A DNA stretch of 61,452 nucleotides from a virus (lineage: Duplodnaviria > Caudoviricetes), in IMG/VR virus record IMGVR_UViG_3300045996_001309, positions 1-61,452 of that record; one strand, written 5' to 3'. A program made the position numbers and the translations under genes. The notes beneath the pieces were generated by a model, which saw nothing but the letters and a program-made list of their open reading frames with translations, searched no databases and was not told the DNA's origin. Of this stretch, positions 1-61,452 are shown piece after piece (the first letter of the stretch is position 1; every line of letters begins with the position of its first letter).

Positions 1-155
1 GTGACCCCGTAATGAGCCACGGATAGTAGGGATCGTGCGACCGATGCCCCCCGGCGTTAGGGCCATTACCACCTGATAGATACACCGCTCCTGATGAATT
101 GTTGACGTTGGTCCCCACCCCGCCAGGAGGTGCCAGCATATCGTGTGTCAGACCT
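1..155. repeat. Terminal direct repeat, left copy (circular genome overlap)
   Basis: Bases 1-155 match 61298-61452 except at positions 23 (a/g) and 29 (g/a). Confidence 0.97.
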
Positions 156-2044
156 GTCAAGCTGATGCTCATAGTCGGGAATGGCGCACCGAGCGTAGCA
201 TACGACGCCCCGGCACCATCTGGGCCGTTGTTCAATGCCGGGATGCGACCAGTGCTCTCATTGAGTAATCCGATCCACGCCCAATGCATCTTTCCGAGCC
301 CAGCGGCGCGGGCTTGATTCCAACTGTTTTCGTCTTGTCGCAGCCAAGCGGTAGTTGCATAAGTGGGCAACGGTCCCTGTTGCGCCGTTGTCCCGGCGTT
401 TCCGATAATGTTTCCATTTCCAATCGCTGCGCCGGGACGGTAGAGATCGGTATCGCCACCAGCGCCGCCGCCTCCGCTTACGGTAAAGGCATCAGCAGTG
501 ATGTCCAGATCATATGGCGGAATCAGCCCGGCCGCTTGCCAATAAGTACGCTCGGCTGTGGTCAACTGTGACCGCAATTCGGGGCGGGTCACTGTCCAAT
601 TTGGATTGGCTGCGTCATCTGCCGCAGAATACCAGCCCTGACGATAAGCCTGACATATTCTTCGCGTCACCGTGAGCGTGCCTGATCCGGTCGCGGTTAT
701 GTCGGCTTGCGGGTCAAACCCGGTCGCTTGCACACCTGTCGCTCCGTTAATGTCAGGCCAGAAGCGGTAAGCCGATCCGGTAATTGGCCTGATCCAATAA
801 GGCTTGTTTGCGATCAGCCCAGTCGGCAACGTTCCGGAAGACGACACCGACACGCATTCCCCTTCCGTGAAGGGCGTAGACCCCAGATCCACCGTGTCGT
901 TTGCGATGCTGATGTTGGTCCCGTTTTGGGTTACGTTGACCGGGGCGCCCCAATTACGAACTGTAGAGCCGCCGTCCTTCAGCGTCGCGAAATACGAAGT
1001 CGCATCCAGCCCGACTACATTGAGCCAGGGCTGCATTATAAATGGCATATAAGAAATGCCGTAGACGCTCCCCGAATCGGTCGGGTCTGTGTAGACATCG
1101 ACGTACCAGCGATTCCACAGATGCGCCGTGTCTTCGCCGGCAACCCGCGTGATCGTGGCTCCACCTGAATGCGCCGCAGCCGTCGAGCCACCCGCACCGC
1201 GCGTCAGAAGGTTCAGCGTCGTGCCGTTCGTTACGGATACGAGCACATACTCGCTGTCGATCTTGACCATCTCGGTGCCGCTCGCAGCAAACGCCGCCGT
1301 TGAGCCGACTGTCACGTTGCCTGTCGTGCCGCTGGTCAGCGCTCCGGTTACTGTCGTGGTCGATGGCGTGTTATCGATTGCCGCTCCGTGAACCACAAGC
1401 CCGCGACGAACCGGCCCTGTAGCGACTACCTGGACGATGCCGTCAGCGATCAGCGTATTGAGCGAGGCGGTGAACGAGCCGCTCCCGAGAACGCCGTCCT
1501 CGTAGTGGCAGATGCCATCATTCGGCACTGTCGTGTACGTATAAGCGCACGGCCGCACGTCCGTGTATTCGATCTCGAAATCGTGCGATCCAGTGATATC
1601 CGCCGTCGTGCGGTTGTCGGTTCCTGGCGTGTATGCGCTCGATCGGCGATACCATTTTACCTGCTCAGTGCCGCCGGCAGAGATCGATGGCATGAACCTT
1701 GAGACGGAAGCGTGCCGGCACGAGCCGTCGTCCCATGTCGATACATCGTCAAGCTGGAATGCCCGCTCGGTGCCGTCCGCGTCTTTCGGAACCGGGTGAT
1801 TGGCTGTCAGGCAATCCGGCACCTCGCCGCGCTTCCAGACCATGCCGAATGTGTGCGGCACGATACCGCTGGCTGATCCAGAATCGTTTGTGATGGTTGT
1901 GGTTGCACCAGCCAACAGGACATCGCCGCCGCCGCCGCTATGCCCGCCGCGCTGGAACGGCGGTTTTGTGGATGCCGGGACAGCAGCGAGCATCGCTACG
2001 CAAGTCAAGCCGGTAAGCAGCGCGCGACGAGTGATCTTATTCAC
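1..2044 (-). CDS. 5' part of a ~1062 aa exported polysaccharide lyase-like fibre-tip enzyme (continues across the junction to 60153)
   Basis: Not in the ORF track. I read the frame by hand: GTG at 2044, no stop down to base 1, and in frame with the 60153..61436 ORF. Starts MNKITRRALLTGLTCVAMLAAVPAST-KPPFQRGGHSGGGG. PHTFGMVWKRGEVP...TWDDGSCRHASVS resembles the N-terminal domain of PcRGLX/YetA-like lyases. Confidence 0.8.
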   Translation of the reverse strand, partial: MNKITRRALLTGLTCVAMLAAVPASTKPPFQRGGHSGGGGDVLLAGATTTITNDSGSASGIVPHTFGMVWKRGEVPDCLTANHPVPKDADGTERAFQLDDVSTWDDGSCRHASVSRFMPSISAGGTEQVKWYRRSSAYTPGTDNRTTADITGSHDFEIEYTDVRPCAYTYTTVPNDGICHYEDGVLGSGSFTASLNTLIADGIVQVVATGPVRRGLVVHGAAIDNTPSTTTVTGALTSGTTGNVTVGSTAAFAASGTEMVKIDSEYVLVSVTNGTTLNLLTRGAGGSTAAAHSGGATITRVAGEDTAHLWNRWYVDVYTDPTDSGSVYGISYMPFIMQPWLNVVGLDATSYFATLKDGGSTVRNWGAPVNVTQNGTNISIANDTVDLGSTPFTEGECVSVSSSGTLPTGLIANKPYWIRPITGSAYRFWPDINGATGVQATGFDPQADITATGSGTLTVTRRICQAYRQGWYSAADDAANPNWTVTRPELRSQLTTAERTYWQAAGLIPPYDLDITADAFTVSGGGGAGGDTDLYRPGAAIGNGNIIGNAGTTAQQGPLPTYATTAWLRQDENSWNQARAAGLGKMHWAWIGLLNESTGRIPALNNGPDGAGASYATLGAPFPTMSISLTGLTHDMLAPPGGVGTNVNNSSGAVYLSGGNGPNAGGHRSHDPYYPWLITGS

Positions 2045-4262
2045 AAACAACACTCGTGTCTCCCGTTGCGTTAATGATGACCCCGGTGATGTATGGTATT
2101 CCATCGAGGAACAGCACGGTTTTATTCGTCAGAGAACCACCATCAGGGGTCACGTCGCACGAAGTTGGAACCAAACCGCCCTGCATCCGGCGGAACGCGA
2201 TATCCGTCGTCATCGTCGATTGCGCGCCGGCATTGGGGCCGGTTGGCTTTGTGATGTACTGCCGGATCGTCGCGCCTGAAAGATGCGCCTTGCCCGTCGT
2301 GTTGAGTCGGCCGCGAGCATTAATATCAACCGTATCGCCAGAGACGCTGGCGACGTTAATGATCTCAGCGTCAGCGGTTCCTTCGTCGATAACGAAATAA
2401 AAATTCACCGAACTGGCAAATGTCACTGTAGAAAACGCGGCGCCGCTCGCGACGGTGAAGGTTCCTGTTGTGCTTTCGTCTATGCCGGAAGTGAGCGTCG
2501 TCGTCGGGGAAGTTGGCGACAGCCCCATCCAAGCATTACCAACCGTGAATTCGAAAGCGCTTGCCGTGTCTGCTGTTATGGTCCAGGTGAACCCGGCATT
2601 GACGCAGCCCTGTGGATCGCCATCATAGATGTTCGCCGAGTCGCGTGTTGCGGTTCCGGGGTCGTCATCGATCGAGCTGTTTGAGAAAGCTGGATAGGCA
2701 AGATCGAGCTGGAACTGCGACTTGCTGTAAGCGACGCCGACCATCGCCCCCGATCCGTCCCGATCGATCGGACCCATAGTCGATGGGTTATCGTGATTTG
2801 CCATAGACCAACAAAAAGCGTGGCCGCGCCGCGCGTCCTGAAAAGCGTCTTTTGCCGTGATCTGCGATTGCCAATTCGAGTGTTGGTCGTCTTTGCCGAT
2901 GGCCCATATCGAGACAGGGAGATCGGTGCCTGGATCGGATGCAATAAAGGTCGGCAAGTCGGCATAGCCGCCAGTGCCGCCGAATGTCGTGCCGTCGTCC
3001 ATCAGAACGCTAGATGCCGTCGTGCCAAGGGTGGATGGAGCTGCCGCGACCGTCGCCTTGAACGGCATCGTCGCCGCCCAGGTAAGCCCCGCCCAACCAG
3101 CGCTGTTGCGCAGATCCATCCGCCATATTGGATATGTCCACCACCCGGCGGACACCCGCACGACGCCCGGATCAAATGTGCGGATACTGTCTATCGCGGC
3201 CCACGCACCCATTGATTGACCGACATGGTGAACTTGATTGGCATCCAGGCCGTAGTGATCGATTGTCCAGGCCAGCAGCCGCTCGTTGCGTTTTGCGGTC
3301 CCGCGATACAATCTGTTCGCCGAGCCGACTAATGCATTAGGTGTCATACCTAACCCCTGGTGGAACGTCTCGATCGTGCCGTCCGCATCCAACGGGTCGT
3401 ACACGCTGTCTCTGATGCGAATAACCAGCGGGCCGCTCAGGCTTAAGAAGGTGCCGGTTCCACCAACACCGTCTTCAGTCACGCCGAACATCGACTTCGT
3501 GCCGTCCTGCCAGCCCTCGGCGGGTATGCCAAAGCTCTCCCAAATATCGCCACGGGTGCAACTCACGGTCCCAGCACAACTACCGGGAGATGTGGATGCG
3601 TGCGCGACCCAGATAAGCGGCTTGCCTGCGGGGCTTGTTACTCTGCCGGCCGCCTCTGCTTGATCCGCCGACGCGACAGCCAGGATCGGTTGTGGTGTCG
3701 CGACGCTCTCGGAGATCGGGCCGGCTGAACCGATGTAGCTCAGGCTGCCGTCACTCGTATCGGTCGAGACAACCGCGTAATAGGCATTTGCGGTGCCGAG
3801 CGCGGTATAGACTTGCATCCCGGTAAAGGCATCGAGCATTGCGCCGGCATCGGTCAATTTCGACCGGGGTCGCGTGCCGTTCTGCCGATAGGTCTGGAGG
3901 TAGGGATTTTCTGTGCTGGCGGCCGGATCGCCGCCGGCAAGCTGTGCCGAGTTGTTTGGGATATAACTCGCGATCAGCGTTGCGCTGGTGTAGTTGCCCG
4001 ACGTGATCGGAGATGTCGAGCGGTAGACACGGTAGCGTGTACTGGCGCCTCCTGCGCCATCCGTTCCGACATCATCCCATGTGACAATGGTCTGCCCGTC
4101 CTGGTACTGAGCACACAGCGTCGGGACAGAGGGATCGCACGCTTGTGCCGACCCGCTGCCGCCGCCGCTATGTCCACCGCGCTGGAACGGTGGTTTCGCA
4201 TGGGCGACAGCAACGGCGACGCCGATAACCGCCGCTGTCGCAAGGAATCGTTTCATCGCCAT
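2037..4262 (-). CDS. Exported alpha/beta-hydrolase (esterase-like) fibre-tip protein
   Basis: Sec-type signal ending AVAHA. GQSMG nucleophile elbow, with candidate Asp (GKDD) and His (ANHD). Late RGRLNTTGKAHLSGATI module. Confidence 0.75.
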   Translation of the reverse strand: MAMKRFLATAAVIGVAVAVAHAKPPFQRGGHSGGGSGSAQACDPSVPTLCAQYQDGQTIVTWDDVGTDGAGGASTRYRVYRSTSPITSGNYTSATLIASYIPNNSAQLAGGDPAASTENPYLQTYRQNGTRPRSKLTDAGAMLDAFTGMQVYTALGTANAYYAVVSTDTSDGSLSYIGSAGPISESVATPQPILAVASADQAEAAGRVTSPAGKPLIWVAHASTSPGSCAGTVSCTRGDIWESFGIPAEGWQDGTKSMFGVTEDGVGGTGTFLSLSGPLVIRIRDSVYDPLDADGTIETFHQGLGMTPNALVGSANRLYRGTAKRNERLLAWTIDHYGLDANQVHHVGQSMGAWAAIDSIRTFDPGVVRVSAGWWTYPIWRMDLRNSAGWAGLTWAATMPFKATVAAAPSTLGTTASSVLMDDGTTFGGTGGYADLPTFIASDPGTDLPVSIWAIGKDDQHSNWQSQITAKDAFQDARRGHAFCWSMANHDNPSTMGPIDRDGSGAMVGVAYSKSQFQLDLAYPAFSNSSIDDDPGTATRDSANIYDGDPQGCVNAGFTWTITADTASAFEFTVGNAWMGLSPTSPTTTLTSGIDESTTGTFTVASGAAFSTVTFASSVNFYFVIDEGTADAEIINVASVSGDTVDINARGRLNTTGKAHLSGATIRQYITKPTGPNAGAQSTMTTDIAFRRMQGGLVPTSCDVTPDGGSLTNKTVLFLDGIPYITGVIINATGDTSVVCE

Positions 4263-4269: not shown

Positions 4270-5541
4270 TCACTTGTTAGCTAGGTAGCTTATTGCGGGA
4301 GCGGATGTCGTAGCCGGGTTGGTGCTGTCTGGATCATCGGCCGTCTGGACCCTATCGTTGTCGTTTACGGCAACTGACATCGCGCATTCTACCTCGGTTG
4401 CGTCTTCATCTAGCTGACACGTAGCTACCTGAACACCGTTGACTCTTGTGCGGTAGATACGATGCTTGCCTGATGCGGCTGCGCCGGGCGCTTGCTGGAT
4501 CTTTATCCGTATTTTTGTCAGTGTCATCGCGCCAACGATGGTCTCGGCGTCAGCCGGCGTTGCGCTACCTGCCAATCCCCCACCCGTCAACGGATAATAA
4601 GTAATCGCTGTTGATGAGTTAACAGTGCCTAGGTTATCTTTCATAAAGATGAAAGATCCCGTTGTCGTTGGGCGGAAACGTGCCCCAAAAGTCGCCGTCG
4701 CGGATGCCGGCACGTTTACATCGTGTGGATTTGCTTCAAATTGTATGTCATCGCCGGCCACAACTGTAAACGAGTTGACCAGATCAGAATTGTCTGTTGC
4801 GGCTCCCGTTATTGTCGTTGTCAAGGCAGTTGTTGCGGCCCCCTTATCTACCGTGTAGGCGTAGCTTGCCGACCCGCCGGGCGCGTTCGACTTGACGTAG
4901 AACTTGTCTATTGTTCCGCCATCCGGAAGCGCGTTGATCCGGCGGTTCGCTGGCGTGTTAACGGTCGCGTTCGAGAATGGGGTAACGGCTTGCGTCACTG
5001 TAGTCGAGTATGTCACACCTTGCGCCGGAATAATCGTGTCTCCCGCTGTCGTTGGAACAAATGTTAGGGCAATGGTCATTAACGAATTAGTTGGTCCGCT
5101 AACCGGCTTGGTTATCAGAGTCCCGCGCTGTCCGGCGGTTATGGCAAGACTCAGCCCCTCAGCCTCGCAACCATTGGCGGCGTTGGTTATTTGACACGTA
5201 ACCGCCGTGTCTACCCCGTTGATGCGCAAGACAATATCCCAGGTATTACCAGCGCCGGGGAGGGTCATAGCGTATGCGCGAATAGCCGTGATCTGCCCCG
5301 CCACGGGAAAAATCATGGACTCAAACTCGGTGCCGGAGGCGGTCGCCGAATATCCCACTGGCAAGAACCTATCAGCCGCTCCGGACACTAGCGATGAGCT
5401 GGTGGTGACAAGCTCCTGCCCGCCGGTTACTGCCGGCGCGGCGAATCGATAGGAATTGATGAGCACATTGGCGGACGCCTGTCCCGCAAGCGCACAAGCC
5501 AGCGCGAAGGCAACCGCAAGGCTGGCGGTTCTCAACAACAT
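4270..5541 (-). CDS. Exported three-domain fibre adaptor/branching protein
   Basis: Signal peptide ending GQASA, mature start NVLINSYRF, then three diverged ~125 aa beta-rich repeats. Confidence 0.65.
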   Translation of the reverse strand: MLLRTASLAVAFALACALAGQASANVLINSYRFAAPAVTGGQELVTTSSSLVSGAADRFLPVGYSATASGTEFESMIFPVAGQITAIRAYAMTLPGAGNTWDIVLRINGVDTAVTCQITNAANGCEAEGLSLAITAGQRGTLITKPVSGPTNSLMTIALTFVPTTAGDTIIPAQGVTYSTTVTQAVTPFSNATVNTPANRRINALPDGGTIDKFYVKSNAPGGSASYAYTVDKGAATTALTTTITGAATDNSDLVNSFTVVAGDDIQFEANPHDVNVPASATATFGARFRPTTTGSFIFMKDNLGTVNSSTAITYYPLTGGGLAGSATPADAETIVGAMTLTKIRIKIQQAPGAAASGKHRIYRTRVNGVQVATCQLDEDATEVECAMSVAVNDNDRVQTADDPDSTNPATTSAPAISYLANK

Positions 5542-5554: not shown

Positions 5555-7237
5555 TTATGCGCAAGTTCCGATTATCAGAACTTTCAGCCCCCGTGCGCCT
5601 GTACCAGCCGCGTCGATGTCCATCGTGATTTCGGCATCGTCCGCTATGGCGCTGTCGGAAATGACGGCAGGAGTCGCTGCCGTCGTGCTGGTCTTTTCAC
5701 TGGCGTCAATGCTGAGCTTTGTGGAAATTATCGATGATCCCGCCTCGTTGATATCGACAGTCACGAGGCCAGAGCTGCTGATTGTCGCGAGGCTTGAGCG
5801 CACTGCGGTAACGGTTAGGGCACACGGCGAGCGAAAAGTTACCTTTGCCGTTCCCGTTGTTAGATTTGTCGTTTCGTCCGACAGCGCGACCTGGATGCGC
5901 TCGATCGCCGGGTCGAGGTTCGAGGCAACTGCGGCACGAAAGTTAGAGCCGTCTCCCGATACGAACGCTTTCTTCCCCTTGGACAACCGTAGGGTCGCAG
6001 CGAGATCGATCGTCTCGGCACCGTTTGGATCGATCGTGCAGCTAAGGGCGTCGCACTCGATGTAGACGCCAAAGCCGTTGCCAAGCGTCGCGGCAGCCGT
6101 CAGAGGTATTGTCACCGCGCCAGCATTGGTTAGGCGAACGGTTTCATTCGCGTCGCCGGCAACGATCGTGCGGCTCGTGGTGGAGTCCGTGTTTACAGTC
6201 TCCGAAAGAGACAGCGTGCCAGAGGTCATCGCAAGACCGCTGCCGAGCGTTACCTCGTTAAAGGCACCGGCATTGTCATAAATTATGCTGCCGTCCGTGA
6301 CGCCAGAAAGATCGGCACCGCTGGGCGTTGCCCACGTCCCGTCGCCTCGCCAGAACGTGCTGCTAGACGCGCTCGTGCCGCTGTTTAGGTTGGCAACCGG
6401 GAGGTTGCCTGTTACGCCGGTTGAAAGGGGCAACCCGGTTGCGTTGGTTAGTACGCCGCTTGCAGGAGTACCGAGAGCCGGCGTCACGAGTGTGGGCGAA
6501 GTGCCGAAGACAAGTGCGCCTGTCCCCGTTTCCCCGGTGACGGCCGCCGCCAAGTTTGCCGTCGATGGCGTCCCCAGGAATGTCCCCACGCCAGTGCCAA
6601 GGCCCGAAACGCCTGTCGTTATCGGAAGACCTGTGGCATTGGTCAGCACCAGTGCAGACGGTGTTCCCAGGTCTGGGGTCGTCAATGTTGGGCTAGTGCC
6701 GAAAACCAGCGCTCCCGATCCCGTCTCTCCAGTGACGGCGGACGCCAAATTCACGCTAGACGGGGTGCCAAGCCATGTGTCAACCGCCGTGCCCAAGCCG
6801 GTCAGCCCCGCGATCGGGAGACCTGTGGCATTGGTCAATGTTAGTGCGGACGGTGTTCCTAGAGCCGGTGTAACCAGCGTCGGCGAAGTCCCAAACACCA
6901 ATGCCCCAGAGCCGGTTTCATTGGTCACGGCTGCCGCGACGTTCGCACTCGTCGGAGTCGCGAGCATTGTGGCGATGCCGGTGGCCGGCGTGATTGCGCC
7001 AAAATTACCGCCGCCCGCATTAGTCTGGAGATCGTTGGTACTGCCGGCAGGCGTACCGCCGCCCCCGCCTGCTCCACAAGCCGACCCCGTACCGGAGACC
7101 GCGCCCGTGGTATCAACCTGCAAGCACTGCGTCGATCCAGTGATGTAGTCGAGAATAAGATCGGCCTCAGCTCTCGGCGAGAAGGCAAGCGTCGTCAGCG
7201 CCAGCGCAACCGCGCTCGCGTAATTAAATGCTCTCAT
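5555..7237 (-). CDS. Exported fibre protein with three ~61 aa repeats and C-terminal adaptor domains
   Basis: Likely start is ATG 7237 ([25 protein letters not shown]) after a [23 protein letters not shown] repeats and a C-terminal [19 protein letters not shown]...GLKVLIIG domain, both typical of phage fibres. Confidence 0.8.
6400..6985 (-). repeat. Three tandem ~185 bp coding repeats in the fibre gene
   Basis: Three copies of TP(S/T)xxNxAxAVTxETG(S/T)[31 protein letters not shown]. Confidence 0.9.
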
Positions 7238-7238: not shown

Positions 7239-7457
7239 TTAATCTCCGATGACGACGTTGCCGACTGCGGACACCCGCACCGTTCCGGTGGCTGAAATGA
7301 CAATGTTTCCGATAGAGGGAGGCGGTGGGGGTGGATTGCCTGTGCCGCCGCCTTTGCCCCGCGATTCACTGGCGCCGAAGCTAAAACCGAAGCCTTGCGC
7401 AAGCGCTGGGCCGGTGAGCAGAGACAGCACGAAGATAATCGCGAGAGGAATTTTCAT
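7239..7457 (-). CDS. Small exported head-spike anchor/linker peptide
   Basis: Signal ending GPALA, then QGFGFSFG, a Gly linker, a Pro6 run and a short beta tail. Lies directly after the spike-base gene. Confidence 0.65.
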
Positions 7458-7461
7458 TGCG

Positions 7462-7821
7462 TTATCTCAAGGCGGTTACGTGCGTACACGTTGTGCCCGT
7501 AGCGAGTAGCCGCTTTATCGAATAAGGATAGGACAAGCCGGGCTGCACGTTAGGGAGCGTGACCGCGCCGGTAGTCAACGAGTCCGCCGAGAAAACCACC
7601 GCGATATTGCACGCCGCCGCGTCGCCAATGTGCAGCCCGCGCGTCGCGGTGATCGTGGTCGAATCCCCCGGTGTCAGCAGCGTGGCTGATCGCCCCTGGT
7701 TAAGAGTTGCCTGACCACTCGGCGCCGGCTGCGCCAGAGCAGGAACGACGGCAAGCGCCGCGCACAAAAAAACCGCCAGAAAGGCGGCCTCGCGAGCTAC
7801 GCGAGCTGTACGATTAAGCAT
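7462..7821 (-). CDS. Head spike base protein (RcGTA Rcc01079-like) with an added signal peptide
   Basis: TPGDS..TRGLHIG...VTLPNVQPG..PYSIKRLLATGTT matches my recollection of the spike-base family. Hydrophobic N-terminus ends VPALA. Confidence 0.7.
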   Translation of the reverse strand: MLNRTARVAREAAFLAVFLCAALAVVPALAQPAPSGQATLNQGRSATLLTPGDSTTITATRGLHIGDAAACNIAVVFSADSLTTGAVTLPNVQPGLSYPYSIKRLLATGTTCTHVTALR

Positions 7822-7888: not shown

Positions 7889-8185
7889 GTGACAAACGAC
7901 GCTCCCAAGCCGGCCCCGCTTGAGATCACCATCAGGTTCGATCCGCAGCGTGTGCGGGCAATGCTGCGAAACCTTCGATCCTTAGCGCTCACGGTCGCGG
8001 CCGCTGGTGGCGCTGTTATCTACGCGCTGCGTCTGCCGCTACTATTCTTGGCGACACTCGCTTTCGCGGCCGTCTTGGCAGGCGTAACAGGCTCAGGAAG
8101 ATCCCTCGGCTTATTCGCTGCCGTGTGGCTGATCTACGGTGTATTTTGGCTTAAAGCTAGGTACTCGCCGCTGATCCGCGACTAG
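7889..8185 (+). CDS. Small membrane protein (moron, opposite strand)
   Basis: Three hydrophobic stretches. Lone plus-strand gene in the virion operon. Confidence 0.6.
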   Translation: MTNDAPKPAPLEITIRFDPQRVRAMLRNLRSLALTVAAAGGAVIYALRLPLLFLATLAFAAVLAGVTGSGRSLGLFAAVWLIYGVFWLKARYSPLIRD

Positions 8186-11100
8186 CGCGTGCCGACTGAC
8201 CGTTGAACCCCTTCCTCAGCGGCGTCGAACAGGTGCCGAAAACCAATCGTGTTTTGTAAAGGCAGTATGCGTCGAGCGGCGTTTATATCACCTTCGGTAG
8301 GATCACCCGTTGCCGCGCCACGAACAGCGCGACCAGCATCCTCGATTAACCCGCCCGTGGGGCCAGTGACAGCGCCGAGCACGCCGCGACTCGAATAGCG
8401 CGATGTCGGCGCTTCTCCGATAAAGCGCTGCAACCCGACTGCGCCGCCAGTAGCTTTTTCCATCGTATTGTGCGCGTCGAACAGCCATCCGGTAAGGCCC
8501 GAGCGATCGACGCCCTCGCGCAGCCATTGCGCCATCCCGTCCGCCGTCGTCGGGTCGGGCAGATCCTTCTTATTTGGATTGTCGTTGAGCTGGTGCTTGA
8601 CGTAATACGTCATCATCCCGAGCGCTGTCATCAACAGCACACCGTTTAGCGTCGCCATGTCGCGACGCTGTAACCCACTCAGCAGCACTCGCTGCGTCGA
8701 TGACATCGCAAAACCCTTGAACTGCCCAAGCAGCCTGCCGGTATTGCCCCAGGCGCCGGACATGATGAGCGGGCGCTCCATACCCGGCGTGACGATGATC
8801 TCGTCCACCTCTTTGGCAAGCGCCCCACGAAACGCATCTACTGCCGCTTGGTCGTCCCATGCTGCTGTATTTGCCCACCAAACGCCGCCATCGGTTTTCT
8901 CGCCGTGCGCCTTAAACTGAGCCGTGATGCGCTCGGCCTCGTCTTGTCCGATTCCCAGGCGAGCAAGCCGGGTTGTCTCGGCCTTTGAGACGCCGCTGCC
9001 GGCAGCCAGTTTCTCAACCGCTTGCAATGTGCGGGTCTGCGAAACGACACCAGCAAACTGCTTCATGGCGCTATTCCACGGCGCCATTAGGGTGGCTAAC
9101 CCGAACTTACGCGACATGCCTTGTAGACCGCGCTCGTATTTCGACCAGCGCCCGTAATCATCGAGCATGTCGGCCATCGCCATTGCCCGCGTGTCGAGCA
9201 CCATGTCAAGCGCGGTGCCGGCGAGCTGCGTCTCCTTTCCTGCTAAACGAAACTTCTTAAAGTTGCTTAGCATCGGCGCGAGCCCGTCGCGCGCAACTCG
9301 CGAGATGCCGTGAACCATGACGGCACGGCCAACATCGGAAAACGCCGAGATCGTCATGCCGCCAAGCAGACGCAGATAATTCAAATCACGAATTACGTGG
9401 TACGCGCGGTTAGCCAAGCCGTTTGGATTGTCGGGCAGACCATAGGTGCCACGGAGACGATCACGCACAGCGGCAATGTCGCGAATGTCGGCGCGCATCT
9501 GGGCATCGAGCTTCTTTAACTCAGCCTCACTCTTGCCTTGACGCAGTATTTCGTAATCAGAAAGGATCTTCTTGATCTGATCTTCCATATCAACCCGGCC
9601 GAACTTCTCGGTCAGGGTCACGTCGGAGGCCATCGTGCGGTTATAGAGACGCGCGATCACGCGCACGTCGCTCTCAAGAATGTCCTCGATCATCTCGTCG
9701 GGGATTTTGAACGCGCGATGCGCTAGCGGACCACGAGGCGGCGGTCCATCACTCGGGCGCCCGCGAGGCGATGGCGTCTCGACATCGTAGGGTAGTCGGC
9801 CGATCGGCGTGCTAAGGATGCGATCGATAATCTGCTTCGCGATATCATTAAGGTCTTCTTCTTCCTGGCGAGTGTTCGCTCTCGCAATTGCCCGAGCCGC
9901 CTTCGACACCGGCTTGTCGGCCTCCTTTAGTCGGCCCTTACCCGGTTCACGAGTCGCTTCTTTCTCCGCACGGCGCTTCAGAGCGCTCTTGGCCTTCATG
10001 CTGGTGTTGCCTTCCCAGCTCGAAACAAGATCCTCGATTTCGGCGCGGATCGCCTCCAGCCGGGCCTGATCCTTATCAAGCCGCCCACCGATCTCGTCTA
10101 TAATACCCTCAGTGCCGCTTGCCTGATCGGATAGCGTATTGATACGCCCGCGAATGCGGCTTTCAAACACGGCGCCGCCACGAGCAGCCCCGCCCTTGCG
10201 GCGCATCTCCTCTTTGAGATCGCCGCGTAGGCGCCGAAGCTCGCGACGGTATGGCCGGATAAGTTTCCCGATTTCAGTCCGAGCTTGCACTAATCCGGCG
10301 CGTTCCTCGGGGGAGAGGCCGCTCCCTTCGCGAGCAAGCCGCTGCACGGCCTTTACGAAATCATCGCCGCCGGCAATAACGTCTACCAGAGTTTCCCCGT
10401 CGCGCAGGCCCGCCAGGGCGTCTTCCGCGACCGCTCGCTGCTGTGGTGTAAACCGAGCCTCGATATTCCTAATACTCGCGCGAATCTGGTCTATCGGTTG
10501 CGTCATCGCAGCTGAACGCTTGAACGCAAAGGCGTTCAGCCGAGAGACTTCTTCGCGCCGGATCTCCTGTTCACGCAACTTACGCGAGCGCAATTCTATT
10601 TTCGCTTCCCGCTTACGCACCCTGCCGGAAAGCTCCTTCTGCTCCGTGATTAGGTCAGAGACCTTGCCTCGGATCGTGTCTTTCTTCGCCTGCTCGTCGG
10701 CCAGCCATCCCGCAAATCTTTGGGTAATCTCAGGACGCTTTGCGATGATCCTCTCGTTATTGTAGACCCGCATAAAATACGACAGGGCAGTATCGGTCGA
10801 CACGTCCTCATCAAGGAGCCCGGCCTTGATCGCCCGCTCTTTCCACGGATCGAACACCCGATCACGCATCAGCTTAGCTGCTTGCGCAACCTCGGGAACT
10901 TCATGTTGATCCTCGCGACGCATCGCGCGACCGACTTGTTCAGCAAACTCGTCATAGGACAGCTTGCCGGCACGATCGCGCACAAGATCACCGACAGCGA
11001 GCCGGGTCACGCTGCCAATGCCTCGATCCCCGCCGGTACGGTAGCGCACAAACAGATCGTCGAGTCCGCCCAACGCCTCCGCGAGCGGAGCACTCGCCTG

Positions 11101-12834
11101 CCGAAGGTCAGTCTCGACGGCGCGCGGCGATGGTATTCCTTCCTCGTTCTTTCGCAGCCCGACTGGCAGCTCGGCAAGCTCCTGTATCAGGTGGCGCGAT
11201 TCCAATGATGGCGAGAACATCGGCCGCAAGTTTGGTGCGGTCTGCGCGAGCGCCCGTCCCATCCCGAGCGCACTTTGCAGGGTTTCCTGCTCAAGGGTTG
11301 TGTCACGAGCCGCCGCCGCGCCGGCCGATCCGCCACGAGCGGAAATGCCTGTTTCTAGCGCCTGTCGGCGAGCAATATCGTCCAGAGCTTGTAGCGATTC
11401 CGGTCCAAGCGTTATGTCAGGTGTCATGCTTTGCGCCGGTACGGGAGATGGGTTACGTTGAACATCTTCCCCGTTCTTCTTTAAGACCTCAATGCGCGCC
11501 TCGTCAAAAATGACGTAATTACGTGTACCCGATTTAGCGGCGCGAGATTCTTCATCAAAAAATCGCAAACCGTGCAATCCGGCACGAGCCAAGGCTTCTG
11601 ACGCTTCCTGAAACCCCCCGCGCCCTCCCCGATTAAGTCCTCGGCGCAACGCCCAATAAACATCTTCTCCCGTGGAATTAGGATCGAGAGCGCGCTCTCG
11701 GCTCCACGCTCTCCCGAAAGAATCACGAAATCCCCATTTGGGGATGGAATCCACGGCTTTGGCAACAGCCGCCTGTACTGCGGGTGATTGCTGCCCTAAA
11801 GGTAATTCCAAATCCATAATATCCGCAACGTGCAGATTCACCTCATATAAAGAGCCACCATCTCTATAGGTAGATGCAACATCGGGTGATTCTGCAAAGT
11901 ACATACCATAACCGTATGTTTGATTCCCTTCTCCAGTGCCAATCAGAGCTTTGCGGAATTTGGTCACATCGTGACGCGATCCGTGATACGCGGTTATCGG
12001 AGCCGCCACCCGTTCCTGCGGCTCGGGAAAATCTCCCCGATTAAGGTACGATCGCAGAACCCCCCCTGATGGTGCAGCGCTTGGTTGCGTAACGGAAGCA
12101 TCCTCGTCCACGTAGCCGCGTTCAATCGCGCCAAGCTCGCGCCCATAGTCTTCACTCTCACGCATCACGCGGCTGGAAAATTCTTCCAACCCACGCGCCA
12201 CGCCCTGCGCCACAGGACGGCTCAGTGCCCCGATAGCGCCACCTAGTGCGCCGCCGATGACGGTCGATGCAGCCACGTTTACCGCGCTCTCGCTCCACGG
12301 GCGCGTTACTTGTGTCGCCTGAAGTCCGGCTTCCTGCGCAGCGGTGCCGACGGCCGACGCAGCTCCGATCCGTGCGGCGCCTGCCAACGCTCGACCAGTG
12401 CGCGTCACGGCCATGAATTGCCCGCCAACAGGAATTACCGTCGTCGGGTCTAGTAATGTTGCCGCGCCAGAAGCAAGCAATCCCATGACGCCGCCATTGG
12501 CCTGTATGTCAGCGCGGCGACGCTCAGCGTCGATGCGAGCCTTCGTGGCAAGGACATCATCCTCGCTGTTGTCTCCAAGGAAGGCGCGCGCGTGATCTTC
12601 GTATCCGCGAATTCTCTCGCCATCCTGCCCAAACGGGTCAAAGCTCGGATCGAACGGCGCGCGGGCAGGCTGCGTCAGCGCTTCTGCCGCTGAGCCGACC
12701 ACGTTATTGCGTAGCATTTCCGTGCCGAACAGCGTCGAGAACGGAGCTGCCGGGGCGCTGGTGGCAAGAGGCTCGGCTAGTTGCGGGACGAGACCAGACA
12801 CCGGAACCTGATCATCGTCGGCCAGGATCGGCAT
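8182..12834 (-). CDS. Large internal virion (ejection) protein, T7 gp16-like position, with an ART-like insert
   Basis: 1550 aa helical protein, last of the ejection trio. GQFKGFAM-type C-terminal region. YHGS...GEGNQTYGYGMYFAE insert. Confidence 0.8.
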   Translation of the reverse strand: MPILADDDQVPVSGLVPQLAEPLATSAPAAPFSTLFGTEMLRNNVVGSAAEALTQPARAPFDPSFDPFGQDGERIRGYEDHARAFLGDNSEDDVLATKARIDAERRRADIQANGGVMGLLASGAATLLDPTTVIPVGGQFMAVTRTGRALAGAARIGAASAVGTAAQEAGLQATQVTRPWSESAVNVAASTVIGGALGGAIGALSRPVAQGVARGLEEFSSRVMRESEDYGRELGAIERGYVDEDASVTQPSAAPSGGVLRSYLNRGDFPEPQERVAAPITAYHGSRHDVTKFRKALIGTGEGNQTYGYGMYFAESPDVASTYRDGGSLYEVNLHVADIMDLELPLGQQSPAVQAAVAKAVDSIPKWGFRDSFGRAWSRERALDPNSTGEDVYWALRRGLNRGGRGGFQEASEALARAGLHGLRFFDEESRAAKSGTRNYVIFDEARIEVLKKNGEDVQRNPSPVPAQSMTPDITLGPESLQALDDIARRQALETGISARGGSAGAAAARDTTLEQETLQSALGMGRALAQTAPNLRPMFSPSLESRHLIQELAELPVGLRKNEEGIPSPRAVETDLRQASAPLAEALGGLDDLFVRYRTGGDRGIGSVTRLAVGDLVRDRAGKLSYDEFAEQVGRAMRREDQHEVPEVAQAAKLMRDRVFDPWKERAIKAGLLDEDVSTDTALSYFMRVYNNERIIAKRPEITQRFAGWLADEQAKKDTIRGKVSDLITEQKELSGRVRKREAKIELRSRKLREQEIRREEVSRLNAFAFKRSAAMTQPIDQIRASIRNIEARFTPQQRAVAEDALAGLRDGETLVDVIAGGDDFVKAVQRLAREGSGLSPEERAGLVQARTEIGKLIRPYRRELRRLRGDLKEEMRRKGGAARGGAVFESRIRGRINTLSDQASGTEGIIDEIGGRLDKDQARLEAIRAEIEDLVSSWEGNTSMKAKSALKRRAEKEATREPGKGRLKEADKPVSKAARAIARANTRQEEEDLNDIAKQIIDRILSTPIGRLPYDVETPSPRGRPSDGPPPRGPLAHRAFKIPDEMIEDILESDVRVIARLYNRTMASDVTLTEKFGRVDMEDQIKKILSDYEILRQGKSEAELKKLDAQMRADIRDIAAVRDRLRGTYGLPDNPNGLANRAYHVIRDLNYLRLLGGMTISAFSDVGRAVMVHGISRVARDGLAPMLSNFKKFRLAGKETQLAGTALDMVLDTRAMAMADMLDDYGRWSKYERGLQGMSRKFGLATLMAPWNSAMKQFAGVVSQTRTLQAVEKLAAGSGVSKAETTRLARLGIGQDEAERITAQFKAHGEKTDGGVWWANTAAWDDQAAVDAFRGALAKEVDEIIVTPGMERPLIMSGAWGNTGRLLGQFKGFAMSSTQRVLLSGLQRRDMATLNGVLLMTALGMMTYYVKHQLNDNPNKKDLPDPTTADGMAQWLREGVDRSGLTGWLFDAHNTMEKATGGAVGLQRFIGEAPTSRYSSRGVLGAVTGPTGGLIEDAGRAVRGAATGDPTEGDINAARRILPLQNTIGFRHLFDAAEEGVQRSVGTR

Positions 12835-31472: not shown

Positions 31473-32675
31473 TTAACCAAGACTCAATTCATAAAATGAA
31501 TCAGAAGACCCATCTGTTGGTAATGTTACTGGCGTCGTGACATTAAAACAGGTAAAGCTGCCACGATTGCCATACGTCCCAATATCCTCATATACACCAA
31601 ACTGGACATCTTGCATTATGTTGTTGTACATTCTGTTGTGGTGCGGAGTATAATCAACGCCCGCAGAAGTTGTAGGCATTAACCGAATACACTTCTGTGA
31701 TTGATATCCATCCCATTCGCTAAACCGGAATATATTATTATTTATAACCCCGCCTACACCATGCACCTCAACTGCATTGACCGGTCCAGCAACAGTTATA
31801 TCGCCCCAGTCTTCAACAATGTTATGGGCAAAAATAAACGACTCTGGAAACATCTGTGCGGCACGGGTTGCTGTTCGCTTAAAGTAATTCCCGGTGACGA
31901 TCATCTCATGTGCTGGAGTATTAAAGGCTTCCAGCCCAACGTCGGGAGTGATACCGAGATTAGCAATACCGCCGCGACAATCAACAATATGATTACCCTG
32001 GTATGAAACCCGTCGCTCGTTGCGCTTGTGCGTACCAGCAAACCGGCAGCGATAAAATCGTGAATTGGTTACGCTGACATCACCATATGCGTCTAGGGTA
32101 AGGGTTCCCTGCGGGACGTCATCTGTCCCGATAGGTCCGTTTCCATAGATCGCTGTGTCAGGCTGGCCTATGAACAGGCAATCGTCGATTGCCCCATGCG
32201 TACAGCCGCCGTAGTCAATGCCAGCGTCGCCCATCTCGTCACGCCAATCATCGGCGGCAATAAACTCGCAACCTCGCACGGTAAAACGCCGTAAATAGCG
32301 AAGAATGAGTGCCGAGCCTGATCCTTCGTTTGCGATATAGGTACGCAGAGAATTGTCAATCGTCAGGTTTATCAGCGTGACGGCCGCATCCGATCCGACC
32401 ACGCCGTCAAACCGCACAACCGGAGACGCAGAACCTCCCTCACCCTTGATGATCGCACCGGGTGCCGTGTGTAACGTAAGCTGCCGGTCAAGCTCCAGCG
32501 TCACATAACGATCAATTAAATATACCCCCGGCGGCGCCCAGCCCGGGATCTGCAGCGAGGTGCATTCCTCGATCCAATCTTGCACCGCCGTAGTGTCATC
32601 GGTTGTGCCGTCACCTTTCGCACCATGCCGACGAATATCAATTCGTGTGGCCGGGTGTGTTCCTAATATCAACAT
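31473..32675 (-). CDS. Right-handed beta-helix (pectate lyase-like/tailspike) protein
   Basis: GAKGDGTTDDTTAVQ...PPGVY start followed by beta-helix repeats. Confidence 0.85.
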   Translation of the reverse strand: MLILGTHPATRIDIRRHGAKGDGTTDDTTAVQDWIEECTSLQIPGWAPPGVYLIDRYVTLELDRQLTLHTAPGAIIKGEGGSASPVVRFDGVVGSDAAVTLINLTIDNSLRTYIANEGSGSALILRYLRRFTVRGCEFIAADDWRDEMGDAGIDYGGCTHGAIDDCLFIGQPDTAIYGNGPIGTDDVPQGTLTLDAYGDVSVTNSRFYRCRFAGTHKRNERRVSYQGNHIVDCRGGIANLGITPDVGLEAFNTPAHEMIVTGNYFKRTATRAAQMFPESFIFAHNIVEDWGDITVAGPVNAVEVHGVGGVINNNIFRFSEWDGYQSQKCIRLMPTTSAGVDYTPHHNRMYNNIMQDVQFGVYEDIGTYGNRGSFTCFNVTTPVTLPTDGSSDSFYELSLG

Positions 32676-32686
32676 AAATGATATCC

Positions 32687-33688
32687 TTACGGCACTTCTG
32701 CTGCGGCTGTCCAGTGTACACGCATAACATTACCAACTGCTGTTGATGCATGTCCTGTAGTTTGTATCGCAAATCCTGACGCAGTAACTCCAATAGCCTG
32801 CGTTAATGTACAATTGCCCGCCGCTGTTGAGTCACGTACCTGTGAATTTAATGCAGACGGATTGTAGAATGTAATATTCGGCGCCATATACATCGGTTGC
32901 GGAAACCGAATATAAGGGGATATCATAACATTGGCACCAGCAACCGTTGCTGGGAAAATATATTCCCCCGTGGTTTCCCCAACATTTTGGGCCGGCGACA
33001 TTCCAGCAAATGTCTTGTTATAATATCGACTGCAATATTGGTATTCGTCAGCAAGCGAACGCCGCTTATAATCTGGCGTACCATAACAAACACAGATTTG
33101 CACATTAGCTATATCAATCGTCATCGTGTTTATAGATGTCAAACCAGATGACAATCGAATCTTCAATGTAATAAAATCATTGTTATCAGAACCAAGCGTT
33201 TTACCAGAGACCGATGGCAGGGTATAAAGAAACGTAAAGGACTGCCAATCGCTTGTCAGCGTTGGTGTATACACGGTTGTCGTGACAAAATCAGATGGAG
33301 TTCCACCCGTGCCAAATACTTGCTGAAGCCAAAGGCGAGGATCTCCGGTCCCGGAGCTACGCCTCAGCCATAAATTTAGGGAAACAGGCACCTCGGAAAG
33401 AGTAGAAACACCTTCCCAGCGTTGTTCAACATCAATTGAACCAAGCTCCTCGGCAACGCCGACGGCTTCACATCGCAGAAAGTATTTAGGGTTTCCGGGG
33501 ACCTCAGTTTGACCTAATGTAAAAGACTGGCGTGACATCGTTAGCGTCGATGTACCGATAGTCGTATTCCGCCAACGATCTGCCGTTGTAAAACCAACTA
33601 CCGACGATGCCAAAAACCCACGTTGCCATAAGTCAAATTGACCATTATGTATTAAGTTGCCATTACCCGGAATGCCGCTGCTCATCAA
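32687..33688 (-). CDS. Fibre-associated carbohydrate-binding protein
   Basis: NLIHNGQFDLWQRG...ADRW and EYQYCSRYY motifs common in phage fibre proteins. Confidence 0.75.
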   Translation of the reverse strand: MMSSGIPGNGNLIHNGQFDLWQRGFLASSVVGFTTADRWRNTTIGTSTLTMSRQSFTLGQTEVPGNPKYFLRCEAVGVAEELGSIDVEQRWEGVSTLSEVPVSLNLWLRRSSGTGDPRLWLQQVFGTGGTPSDFVTTTVYTPTLTSDWQSFTFLYTLPSVSGKTLGSDNNDFITLKIRLSSGLTSINTMTIDIANVQICVCYGTPDYKRRSLADEYQYCSRYYNKTFAGMSPAQNVGETTGEYIFPATVAGANVMISPYIRFPQPMYMAPNITFYNPSALNSQVRDSTAAGNCTLTQAIGVTASGFAIQTTGHASTAVGNVMRVHWTAAAEVP

Positions 33689-33698
33689 ATTACCCTAT

Positions 33699-34370
33699 TT
33701 AATTCACAATCCATTCGCCAGTGACGGATCGGGCAATCCATTCTCCCCCGACACGGGCATGTAAGCAAACAGACGAATGTGGTGAATCTGATTCAATACT
33801 AGAACCGGAGGTTCCTGTTCCTGTTCCCAAAGCAATCGTGTTTCCTACAGGAGCTGTTAGCTTTAACAGGAAAGTTTCAACCACAGTGTAACAACGTGTC
33901 GGAGCTATTGGGCTGGCCCCCGGCAATGTAATTTCAGTTGTGGTTGTTGCTCCCGCATTATCGAAATCTAAAATTTGACCGGAATAGTTAAGATCAATAG
34001 GTGTTCCATTGATCATAAGACTAAATGTCGTCGCGGCTCCACCGTAACCATTCAATGAAATAACGGCCGCACCATCTTCATACCCGATGCACAAGGAATT
34101 ATAAGGGCCGGTAGTGACAGCATCATTGACACAAAATCCGAGACCAGACGAGGTTACGGAAAATGGATTTAAGCCACGCCCAAAGGCATCACCGGCAATA
34201 CCGCCGGCCGCGCCATAACGGCCCTGAGTAATCGCCTTAAGGGCGTCGCCGGGGACAAGAACACCATCTTGAAAGGCTGGAGTCCGTTGGGCAAATGCTG
34301 AAGGCGATAATGCAGGGAGGCTGCCAATCAACAGAACCAGCCCAGCAATAAATCTTATTGCCGCATTCAA
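33699..34370 (-). CDS. Exported fibre adaptor-like protein
   Basis: Signal ending SAFA, 4 Cys, and a C-terminal EITLP...W...GEW adaptor-like domain. Confidence 0.6.
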   Translation of the reverse strand: MNAAIRFIAGLVLLIGSLPALSPSAFAQRTPAFQDGVLVPGDALKAITQGRYGAAGGIAGDAFGRGLNPFSVTSSGLGFCVNDAVTTGPYNSLCIGYEDGAAVISLNGYGGAATTFSLMINGTPIDLNYSGQILDFDNAGATTTTEITLPGASPIAPTRCYTVVETFLLKLTAPVGNTIALGTGTGTSGSSIESDSPHSSVCLHARVGGEWIARSVTGEWIVN

Positions 34371-55742: not shown

Positions 55743-55927
55743 CCAACAACAAGATCATCGAGGCTGTGGCACGGGCGCTCTGTACCGCTAATGGAATGGC
55801 CGTGGAGGCGCCTGTTAGTGAGGGGCCTCTAAGCGGACAGCCGCAATGGCGGCTATTCGAGGATGAGGCGCGCGCTGCGATCGAGGCTTACGAGGCGGAG
55901 ATCGTCGCCGCCCTGACGCGCGGCTAA
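55739..55927 (+). CDS. Hypothetical protein
   Basis: IEAVARALC...W..F..EARAAI motif. Confidence 0.6.
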   Translation: MTNNKIIEAVARALCTANGMAVEAPVSEGPLSGQPQWRLFEDEARAAIEAYEAEIVAALTRG

Positions 55928-56931: not shown

Positions 56932-56950
56932 GATTGTCTCCGTTTTAGGG

Positions 56951-56978
56951 TTGCACGGTATAAAAACAATGATATATT
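56951..56978 (+). promoter_or_regulatory. Moron promoter
   Basis: TTGCAC-N16-TATATT in AT-rich intergenic DNA. Confidence 0.55.
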
Positions 56979-57008
56979 GTCAGTGTCATCAACACTAGGA
57001 ACGACAGA

Positions 57009-60152: not shown

Positions 60153-61452
60153 CTACTCGATCGTCGGGTGGTCGCAGTCGATGCCCCACTTCGATTTCGC
60201 CGAAAACGAGGCCGCCGTAAGCCCGGTGCGGGCATTCACCTCGGTGATCGGGGCGTCCAGATCACCGCGCGCAGCAAGTGCGCGAGCCCAGCACATAATC
60301 ATTCGGTCCTGGGTAATATACGTATCTTCCACCGCCCCGCCCGCGACATACCCGCTCGCAGGATTGGCTTGAGGCCGCATGACCCAAGCGTTCCCCGCCG
60401 ATGCGGTCGCCACCGGGATCACTGCCCCGCCCGGCGTGCAGGCCAGCCCCGAAATGTTTAATCCGCTAGGACTGCGAATATAAAACCATCGCGAACCACC
60501 ACACGCATTCCCAGCGTCATCAGGCTTAAACTCGGGAGGCCCGCTGTACGTTGTCCCTGGCATAGCTGTTATAAACACCGGCGATGATATCATGATCGGG
60601 TCATTGTCGCTCATGTTCATATCAGTCCACATGGAACTGAAGGTGGCGGCAGCGCTGCCGCCTCCAGTAAATGCCAGCGTCCGGCTTCCACCAAACCCGC
60701 CAATCCCAACATCATTAAAAGATGTCGCAAAAGCTGTCTGCCACGCTCCGTTCCATGTGGTTTGAATCAACGCGGCTGAGTAAGGGTTCGCGAAGTTACT
60801 GTGATACTCTATTGCGCAGTAGAAGGGGCTTATCCATGACCCACCATAGCAACCAGTCTGCCAATTTGTCGTCCTGGTAACAAGATCATCAAATCTAGCA
60901 TCGCGGGTCATACCCTTGCCCCACAGCCACGCGACAGTTCCCCATCGTGTCGTCAGACCATCGGCGCCTTGAGAGTTCAGGTCCATCGATCCAATCGTAT
61001 CCTGCCCTGCCGATTGGATCGCTTGCACGTCTTCCCAGAAATCCAAGTTCTCCATCAGGTAGTCTTCAATCAATCCCTTCTCAGGGTTTGCCGAGCTACC
61101 CATAACAGACGCACTTATAACGCCCTTTAGAGCGCCGGGTGTACGCGCATCCGATCCGAAGATATACGTGGCATAATAAATCCTCCCGGTCCCGCCGATC
61201 TGCTTTATCCGACCCGAAGTGAAGCCGTTATCAGGGTATGCGGTATAGGCAACAACTGTAGTGTTGGCGTCTATATACAGTCCGTCGAGATAAGCTCGTG
61301 ACCCCGTAATGAGCCACGGGTAGTAAGGATCGTGCGACCGATGCCCCCCGGCGTTAGGGCCATTACCACCTGATAGATACACCGCTCCTGATGAATTGTT
61401 GACGTTGGTCCCCACCCCGCCAGGAGGTGCCAGCATATCGTGTGTCAGACCT
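60153..61452 (-). CDS. 3' part of the junction-spanning lyase-like protein starting at 2044
   Basis: In frame across the terminal repeat. H.SHDPYYPWLITGSRAYLDGL resembles the helical catalytic region of this lyase-like family. Confidence 0.8.
   Translation of the reverse strand, partial: GLTHDMLAPPGGVGTNVNNSSGAVYLSGGNGPNAGGHRSHDPYYPWLITGSRAYLDGLYIDANTTVVAYTAYPDNGFTSGRIKQIGGTGRIYYATYIFGSDARTPGALKGVISASVMGSSANPEKGLIEDYLMENLDFWEDVQAIQSAGQDTIGSMDLNSQGADGLTTRWGTVAWLWGKGMTRDARFDDLVTRTTNWQTGCYGGSWISPFYCAIEYHSNFANPYSAALIQTTWNGAWQTAFATSFNDVGIGGFGGSRTLAFTGGGSAAATFSSMWTDMNMSDNDPIMISSPVFITAMPGTTYSGPPEFKPDDAGNACGGSRWFYIRSPSGLNISGLACTPGGAVIPVATASAGNAWVMRPQANPASGYVAGGAVEDTYITQDRMIMCWARALAARGDLDAPITEVNARTGLTAASFSAKSKWGIDCDHPTIE
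61298..61452. repeat. Terminal direct repeat, right copy
   Basis: Matches 1-155 with two mismatches. Confidence 0.97.

Follow-up and report, generated by a model that had tools for sequence, protein, structure and literature searches.

A base, plug and fibre module resembling a capsid spike, with predicted export signals, in an uncultured soil podovirus

The late region of an uncultured temperate soil podovirus encodes a small protein that resembles the base of a capsid spike and that begins with an export signal, as do the products of the genes that follow it. This raises the question of why parts of such a spike should be exported and where the resulting complex would end up. The window examined here is the whole of IMG/VR record IMGVR_UViG_3300045996_001309 (61,452 nucleotides, nt), and the locus comprises a gene for a product of 119 amino acids (aa), here called the base, a 72-aa gene whose product we call the plug or peptide, and a 560-aa fibre gene. 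The original prediction, made from the letters of the window, had likened the 119-aa product to the head-spike base of the Rhodobacter capsulatus gene transfer agent (RcGTA) and had proposed that the second product, once freed of its signal peptide, connects the base to a separate fibre. Our best reading is that the locus encodes an exported, disulfide-bonded, split version of the RcGTA/Carin1 type of capsid-vertex spike, made in three parts (base, plug and fibre). We put the probability of the whole chain of steps at roughly 0.45 and regard the first two steps taken together, export and the assembly of a base ring with its plug, as reasonably likely.

The base was compared with the PDB by sequence and by fold. 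As a single sequence, its best match was 8cjz chain h ('Spike Base Protein'), with an E-value of only 0.49. A profile of 18 close relatives (A1) matched the same chain at 4.6e-6 and the RcGTA head-spike base Rcc01079 (6tb9_E3) at 1.7e-3, and a profile of 107 family members (A5) matched Rcc01079 (6tb9) at 7.4e-11 and the Carin1 protein (8cjz) at 4.4e-10. The hidden Markov model of phrog_12296 also matched (E 6e-6, residues 47-118 against profile positions 20-85 of 86); the name of that family, 'tail fiber protein', is an annotation only. The AlphaFold2 model of the base (predicted local distance difference test, pLDDT, 91.7) has a helix over residues 4-29 followed by six strands. When this model was compared with the PDB by Foldseek, exactly two entries were returned at E ≤ 1e-3, the capsids of phage Carin1 and of RcGTA (6tb9), with template modelling (TM) scores by target of 0.74-0.78. 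VIA-align superimposed model residues 31-119 on residues 1-84 of 6tb9_A1 with a Z-score of 11.7 and a root-mean-square deviation of 2.0 (81 of 84 aligned), and aligned 85 residues to 8cjz_h with a Z-score of 10.2; the next, unrelated chain reached 4.2. BFVD held 14 further matches at E ≤ 1e-3, all of them small uncharacterised phage proteins. Fibronectin type III chains, which scored in the profile searches, were rejected as relatives, since their scores had accumulated from short matches to a single strand-turn motif and no stretch passed by itself; no such chain ranked in the fold searches. The 119-aa product is a true homologue of Rcc01079, and the proposed likeness to the RcGTA spike base was thus borne out by family profiles and by fold.

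Structures of the RcGTA head spike are available (PDB 6TB9, 6TBA, 6TSU and 6TUI; Bardy et al. 2020, PMC7296036), and in them the N-terminal arm of the base binds the capsid, and residues 2-10 of the head fibre Rcc01080 are bound as a five-point star in the base pentamer. In the window, residues 1-30 of the base form a Sec-type signal and residues 31-119 a jellyroll that includes the N-terminal arm, with Cys71 and Cys112 as a conserved pair. The mature base is collinear with Rcc01079 from its first residue, so that the leader is a pure addition, and the partner gene again lies directly downstream. The Carin1 Spike Base Protein (PDB 8CJZ chain h, 'Carin1 bacteriophage mature capsid') was the best PDB match for both the single sequence and the close profile; its presence in that capsid places the base family on capsids of true phages. 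The solved Carin1 chain differs from the window base in that it has no leader and no Cys pair at the aligned positions; no publication on 8CJZ or Carin1 was found in a literature search.

The base family comprises 2769 cluster representatives at E ≤ 0.001 and splits into long members with a hydrophobic leader and short members without one. The signal-bearing and signal-less subfamilies are homologous (hhalign probability 99.7), and signal-less relatives of the base occur in at least 528 viral contigs. No base loci were obtained from the single protein or from close alignments in genome contigs or metagenome contigs, nor in a first viral scan, and a hand-made degenerate DNA pattern gave 0 matches.

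The partner of the base was next compared across related loci. Its predicted mature form has 52 residues, made up of QGFGFSFG (the star motif), a Gly-rich stretch, six consecutive prolines and a 25-aa tail. A word-based search returned no homologue of the 72-aa peptide besides the peptide itself; relatives were identified from their position instead. From 49 loci around base relatives (L002-L050), 29 remained once duplicates, one partial locus, four loci without downstream DNA and the spurious L003, a short motif inside an unrelated protein, had been removed. A strict pattern (a hydrophobic run followed within four residues by [QHDI][GSD]-Phi-G-Phi-[GS]-Phi-G) was present at the end of the base gene in 24 of these 29 loci, compared with 3 of 2042 random 480-nt windows of the same loci. 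With a looser parse, the star lay right after a signal in 26 of the 29; in the other three, either a signal protein without a star follows (L013, L038) or the base itself has no signal (L050). An open reading frame (ORF)-based screen gave 22 of the 29 loci, one of them doubtful (L013), and missed five real peptides that were recovered by frame-by-frame reading. In the related loci, the start of the next gene usually falls within the base gene, 27 nt short of its end; in the window the next gene starts 4 nt past the stop of the base gene, and the fibre ATG (7237) lies 1 nt past the stop codon of the peptide.

Two arrangements were found among the loci with a star. In the fused form (13 loci), a protein of 223-527 aa, where complete, has the star as its mature N-terminus, which is the RcGTA arrangement with a leader added. 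In the split form (13 loci and the window, 14 in all), it begins a micro-protein of 44-52 mature residues, so that the small partner of about 52 aa noted in the original prediction is typical of its kind. The resemblance of its N-terminus to residues 2-10 of Rcc01080, in which glycines alternate with hydrophobic residues, likewise extends beyond the window through conservation beside the base gene. In RcGTA the corresponding free N-terminus reads IALGLGLGL, and there the plug consists of the first ten fibre residues with five Ile/Leu, whereas here it is a separate micro-protein with three Phe and an Ala. The hydrophobic points of the window plug are F3, F5 and F7, then A9, with Q1 at the first point; its relatives mostly have four hydrophobic points after Q1. 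An anchor of the Rcc01080 type would have five such points, two residues apart, to fill five pockets.

Signal-less phage homologues share the base family, a plug-bearing next gene and also the split form, and differ in having no signal, no Cys pair and the plug at Met1. An alternating hydrophobic N-terminus was found at Met1 of the next gene in 24 of 75 signal-less loci, compared with 72 of 2584 random windows, and 10 of these 24 next genes are complete ORFs of at most 90 aa. Splitting is therefore not confined to the exported clade, which stands out instead by a leader placed exactly before the star. As the star stands at Met1 in signal-less relatives and behind a leader in the others, the plug motif is always at a free N-terminus.

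Signal peptides had also been proposed for both products. Leaders were called by inspection (a basic n-region ahead of a hydrophobic core of 10-15 residues, with small residues at -3 and -1), and Sec-type leaders were found on the base and the peptide. The base and plug genes belong to a run of six consecutive minus-strand genes directly after the gp16-like gene, and all six products have signal-like N-termini. Predicted cleavage sites are ALA/Q after residue 30 of the base, ALA/Q after residue 20 of the peptide, AEA/D after residue 25 of the fibre, ASA/N in the 423-aa protein and AHA/K in the 741-aa protein. These five leaders fit the rule for Sec-type signals; the sixth product, a protein of about 1083 aa whose gene wraps around the ends of the record, has a twin-arginine-like leader instead. 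Among 164 representatives of the base family, 96 had a hydrophobic N-terminus, and 87 of these carried the Cys71/Cys112 pair; of the 68 others, 63 lacked it. Four of the five exceptions in the latter group have leaders just below the threshold, and one is truncated. Six signal proteins of this phage contain cysteine, and each has an even number of Cys in its mature part (2, 6, 4, 8, 12 and 4), often as close pairs; Cys content is 1.19% in these mature parts versus 0.43% in 10 signal-less structural proteins. The association of leader and Cys pair, the even Cys counts and the position of the plug at a free N-terminus suggest, as far as sequence can indicate, that export is real.

The same observations bear on the explanation that nothing is exported, the hydrophobic N-termini being uncleaved or non-functional and the spike being built on the capsid in the cytoplasm exactly as in RcGTA. 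Cleavage here is indeed a prediction, and the cytoplasmic route is the only one known for the solved homologues (PMC7296036). However, the plug motif needs an N-terminal position, which it has at Met1 in signal-less relatives, yet here a 20-aa hydrophobic leader precedes it and it begins immediately past a small-x-small site, an arrangement found in 24-26 of the 29 loci. The conserved Cys pair moreover appears only with the leader, and the even Cys counts extend to all six cysteine-bearing signal proteins. We consider assembly without export highly improbable.

We then asked what the plug might connect. The anchor is not continuous with the fibre: the peptide gene stops after 72 codons, and the fibre is encoded by another ORF, whose product begins with a signal too. 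The fibre consists of signal residues 1-25, a 31-aa N-terminal mini-domain with Cys38 and Cys54, a Gly linker, repeats and a C-terminal domain. It had no PDB or Pfam match by sequence; its C-terminal domain is common to virion proteins of cultured phages (tblastn, 20 GenBank phage records, partial matches only). Where a split locus has DNA beyond the peptide gene, the next product is in most cases a fibre-like protein with a signal. Read by eye, the tails of the 14 split peptides comprise 11 with three repeats and three with a different tail that contains a Cys pair. The class of the peptide tail matches the class of the fibre N-terminus, with L002 and L028 in one class and L004, L040, L043 and L045 in another. 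In L014 a peptide of the second class was predicted from the fibre N-terminus and then found by reading the frames. The match between tail and fibre classes could also come from linkage by descent.

Folding of the complex was examined with three copies of fibre residues 26-110 and one of peptide residues 40-72. The median interaction prediction score from aligned errors (ipSAE) was 0.42 (runs of 0.40, 0.42 and 0.62), compared with 0.02 for the best of three controls. Partner pLDDT was at least 66, at least 53% of contacts agreed between runs, and the verdict of the tool was 'weak support'. In the calibration of the tool, 116 of 157 solved complexes reached its mark, as did 2 of 215 mismatches; both mismatches and only 18 of the 157 complexes did so at scores of 0.60 or below. 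The present job is unlike the calibration set. The pLDDT of the peptide tail was 66-74 with the fibre present versus about 45-55 alone. We take the modelled complex as a mild, weak increment in favour of a connector role. The original proposal that the peptide is purely a connector to a separate fibre thus has indirect and weak support, from the signal-bearing protein after the peptide in most split loci, from the match between tail and fibre classes, and from this weak pass when the peptide C-terminus was folded with fibre N-termini.

A different function for the peptide would be that of a cap, plugging the base ring and ending in a small knob of its own, with the fibre and the large proteins attaching elsewhere or acting alone. 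The Cys-pair tails, at positions 5795-6013 of L005, 1673-1873 of L039 and 6303-6524 of L048, are the observations closest to this idea: the peptides of L005 and L048 are followed by proteins of 121 aa and 173 aa and no long fibre, the L039 contig ends just after the peptide, and these three peptides may be caps rather than connectors. The weak pass of the modelled complex also fits a cap. As a general explanation, however, a cap is at odds with the match between tail and fibre classes across loci, which was predictive in L014, and with the rise in tail confidence when the fibre is present. The fused forms, in which the same plug is continuous with a large protein, further indicate that the normal job of the plug is to carry a payload. 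We therefore regard the cap as a quite unlikely account of the window peptide.

For the exported spike that we favour, these results can be arranged as four steps. In the first, which we consider very probable from the signals, the base, plug and fibre would be made with cleavable Sec signals, pass through the inner membrane and reach their folded state in the periplasm, with disulfides forming there between paired cysteines. In the second, for which the homology of the base is established and the assembly itself likely, five mature 89-aa base subunits would form a ring. Signal peptidase would free the plug N-terminus, and the Phe/Gly stretch of one copy would fill the hydrophobic pockets of the ring, as by analogy residues 2-10 of the RcGTA fibre do. 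The third step is tentative, somewhat short of an even chance: the Gly/Pro6 linker would lead to the three-repeat tail, whose role would be to hold the mini-domains at the N-termini of the separate and probably trimeric fibre. In this way a single chain would adapt a five-fold socket to a three-fold fibre, and the split may be what lets a trimeric fibre hang on a one-chain socket, each tail repeat taking one fibre subunit. In adenovirus, a trimeric fibre sits on the five-fold penton base via N-terminal peptides, the classic 5:3 symmetry mismatch, and three fibre tails fill three of the five sites. The present proposal differs in that the adaptor would be one chain, distinct from the fibre, that offers about five plug points and three tail repeats; no homology is involved. 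In the fourth step, also tentative and to our minds not quite an even bet, spikes would meet the cytoplasmic capsids only when holin lesions and lysis mix the compartments, and would bind the vertices via the N-terminal arm of the base.

The setting of the locus bears on this last step. The record is rated 100% complete, and its ends overlap by 155 nt (1-155 versus 61298-61452, with 2 mismatches), so that the genome, although listed as linear, closes as a circle of about 61.3 kb (circular or terminally redundant). The spike cluster is therefore encoded by the phage itself, a complete podovirus genome with a T7-like late operon on the minus strand. The operon runs from small and large terminase through portal, major capsid protein and tail tubular proteins A and B to the gp14-, gp15- (transglycosylase) and gp16-like internal virion proteins, with a CI-type repressor, a primase-helicase and the lysis region located outside it. 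Once the genome is circularised, the spike cluster adjoins the lysis region, whose spanin-like genes imply a host with an outer membrane. Compared with RcGTA, the element here is a temperate T7-like podovirus rather than a gene transfer agent, every part of the spike has a Sec-type signal, the base has a conserved Cys pair, and the spike is known from its genes, with attachment to the capsid being a prediction. Coordinates of the cluster, of the parts of the base and plug, and of the lysis region are given in Table 1.

Table 1. Positions in the window of the six-gene spike cluster, the parts of its base and plug products, and the lysis region
Feature	Position	Strand	Details
Cluster gene 1, spike base	7462..7821	-	ORF, 119 aa
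Base, Sec-type signal (residues 1-30)	7732..7821	-	
Base, jellyroll (residues 31-119)	7465..7731	-	
Cluster gene 2, plug micro-protein	7239..7457	-	ORF, 72 aa
Plug, signal peptide (residues 1-20)	7398..7457	-	cleavage predicted from sequence
Plug, star motif QGFGFSFG (residues 21-28)	7374..7397	-	predicted mature N-terminus; conserved in related loci
Plug, flexible linker (residues 29-47)	7317..7373	-	Ser/Gly-rich stretch and six consecutive prolines
Plug, C-terminal tail (residues 48-72)	7242..7316	-	25 aa, three short hydrophobic beta-type repeats; proposed fibre dock
Cluster gene 3, fibre	5555..7237	-	ORF, 560 aa
Cluster gene 4, function not assigned	4270..5541	-	ORF, 423 aa, signal-bearing
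Cluster gene 5, alpha/beta-hydrolase (esterase)-like	2037..4262	-	ORF, 741 aa, signal-bearing
Cluster gene 6, wrap-around protein of about 1083 aa	2104 to 1, then 61452 to 60153	-	ORF cut by record ends; N-terminal 701 aa in 1..2104, C-terminal part in 60153..61452
Lysis region	55924-58386	-	lysozyme 57718-58386; DUF3597 protein; holin-like 102-aa membrane protein 56318-56626; 70-aa lipoprotein-like ORF 56109-56321; spanin-like 62-aa membrane ORF 55924-56112

The remaining products of the cluster were examined for clues to its function. The 423-aa protein has four Cys in its mature part and is a member of virus-dominated protein clusters. The 741-aa protein has a GQSMG nucleophile-elbow motif and a fibronectin type III-like part; its Atlas feature score of 0.87 and structural TM score of about 0.6 are leads only. 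Neither of the two had a significant match in PDB sequence searches, and the proteins of the cluster had no Pfam hits. Right after their signals, the 741-aa and wrap-around proteins have an identical 13-residue mature N-terminus, KPPFQRGGHSGGG, which from its sequence looks like a docking tag common to both. A second candidate docking tag, again judged from sequence, is QVG[LM]PWPGPG, which was found at the mature start of the signal-bearing protein after the fibre in three loci (L004, 11863-12873; L014, 7881-8783; L017, 5818-6753).

The destination of the complex was considered next. It is homology that suggests the head as its attachment site. In favour of the virion are the position of the module in the operon, the retained capsid-binding arm, fibre modules that are shared with virions of cultured phages, and a five-fold ring that fits a vertex. 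The module lies inside structural operons of several phage types. In L004 it is flanked by the major capsid and tail-tube genes, in L011 and L026 it precedes genes for internal virion proteins, and it follows the portal gene in L002 and the gp16-like gene in the window. In the competing explanation, the complex is exported and is never part of the virion. Base, plug and fibre, with the esterase-like and large partners, would form a free device that binds or cuts sugars from the periplasm or after release, and that might strip or mask host surface polysaccharide, so that progeny escape debris or rival phages are kept out. Export signals on all parts together with cytoplasmic capsids agree with such a device, as do a cluster that includes an esterase-like protein and two proteins sharing an N-terminal tag, and the place of that cluster beside the lysis region in the circularised genome. 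It accounts less well for a module that in several phage types lies among virion genes rather than at the ends of operons, and for a full-length N-terminal arm of the base that is collinear with the capsid-binding arm of Rcc01079 (PMC7296036). A five-fold ring also has no evident use away from a five-fold vertex, and the presence of the spike genes in the late structural operon argues against lysogenic conversion. We consider the free device possible but on the whole doubtful, and place an off-virion role somewhat behind loading at lysis. For the vertex spike, an extension to a large clade of tailed phages may also be imagined, in which capsids are cytoplasmic and vertex spikes matured in the periplasm are added within seconds of holin lesions, with the 52-aa peptide as a dedicated 5-to-3 symmetry adaptor (about five Gly-hydrophobic points, three beta repeats); this broader proposal we regard as unlikely.

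Several points weigh against the vertex-spike reading. Virions of tailed phages are assembled in the cytoplasm, and we know of no tailed phage that has been shown to take virion parts from the periplasm; a literature search brought up none. The cytoplasmic location of the capsids, the esterase-like enzyme in the cluster and the adjoining lysis region all count against a place on the virion. No tblastn match was found for three signal-bearing bases in 50,697 GenBank phage records, so there is no virion proteome to draw on. The capsid protein of this phage had no significant PDB match by sequence, and nothing thus ties it to capsids known to bear such spikes. Export is predicted from leaders inspected by rule, from cysteine patterns and from the position of the plug, and the association of signal and Cys pair may reflect a single evolutionary origin: one clade for all Cys-pair members was not rejected (p-AU, from the approximately unbiased test, 0.43), and the tree held only 1-3 supported independent signal/Cys contrasts, which gives no power. 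The peptide folded poorly when modelled alone (pLDDT 54, and below 50 for residues 27-40), and the strong hydrophobic points of the window plug number only three (F, F, F), with Ala and Gln besides, versus five Ile/Leu in RcGTA. A weak pass of the modelled complex is, by the calibration of the tool, 'more often wrong than right unless the guess was likely beforehand'. Lastly, the trimeric fibre is assumed, and RcGTA carries a single fibre subunit per spike (PMC7296036, PMC10218006).

Other features of the genome were also recorded. A 98-aa ORF (7889-8185, plus strand) with two to three predicted membrane helices lies between the gp16-like and base genes; it overlaps the gp16-like stop by 4 nt and is without a family match. 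In the gp16-like internal virion protein (8182-12834, minus strand, 1550 aa), residues 279-352 match a domain of the ART-PolyVal ADP-ribosyltransferase type, with a Pfam E-value of 2.4e-7 that is just above the cut-off. Another signal-bearing protein, of 223 aa and with four Cys, is encoded upstream of the small terminase gene (31473-34370, minus strand); it is followed by a 333-aa protein and a 400-aa pectate-lyase-like beta-helix protein, the last two signal-less and candidates for the ordinary tail receptor-binding proteins of the phage. A stand-alone response-regulator receiver domain gene (59286-59678, minus strand, Pfam E 1.3e-8) lies between the spike cluster and the lysis region. A search of the genome for tRNA genes gave none, and no promoter or terminator signals above shuffled expectation were found around the spike genes.

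The vertex spike of RcGTA and Carin1 is known; what is new here is a split form of that spike with predicted export, of which no printed description was found. A literature search at the level of titles, which does not prove absence, found no description of head spikes or fibres with signals. In the present family, a protein homologous to a capsid spike of solved structure has a conserved export signal and Cys pair, its plug and fibre are also signal-bearing, and the arrangement recurs across dozens of uncultured soil phage contigs of differing architecture. If the spikes reach the particle, these phages would have a two-compartment assembly route, contrary to the view that tailed-phage virions are made in the cytoplasm only, and phages of Gram-negative hosts would have a means to display disulfide-stabilised surface proteins. 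If the spikes stay off the particle, a virion spike would have been turned into a secreted sugar-targeting device. The plug belongs to a class of micro-protein genes that gene callers easily miss, and in either case the split plug would be a small portable docking tag, which would explain how fast-swapping fibres and enzymes can be hung on one socket.

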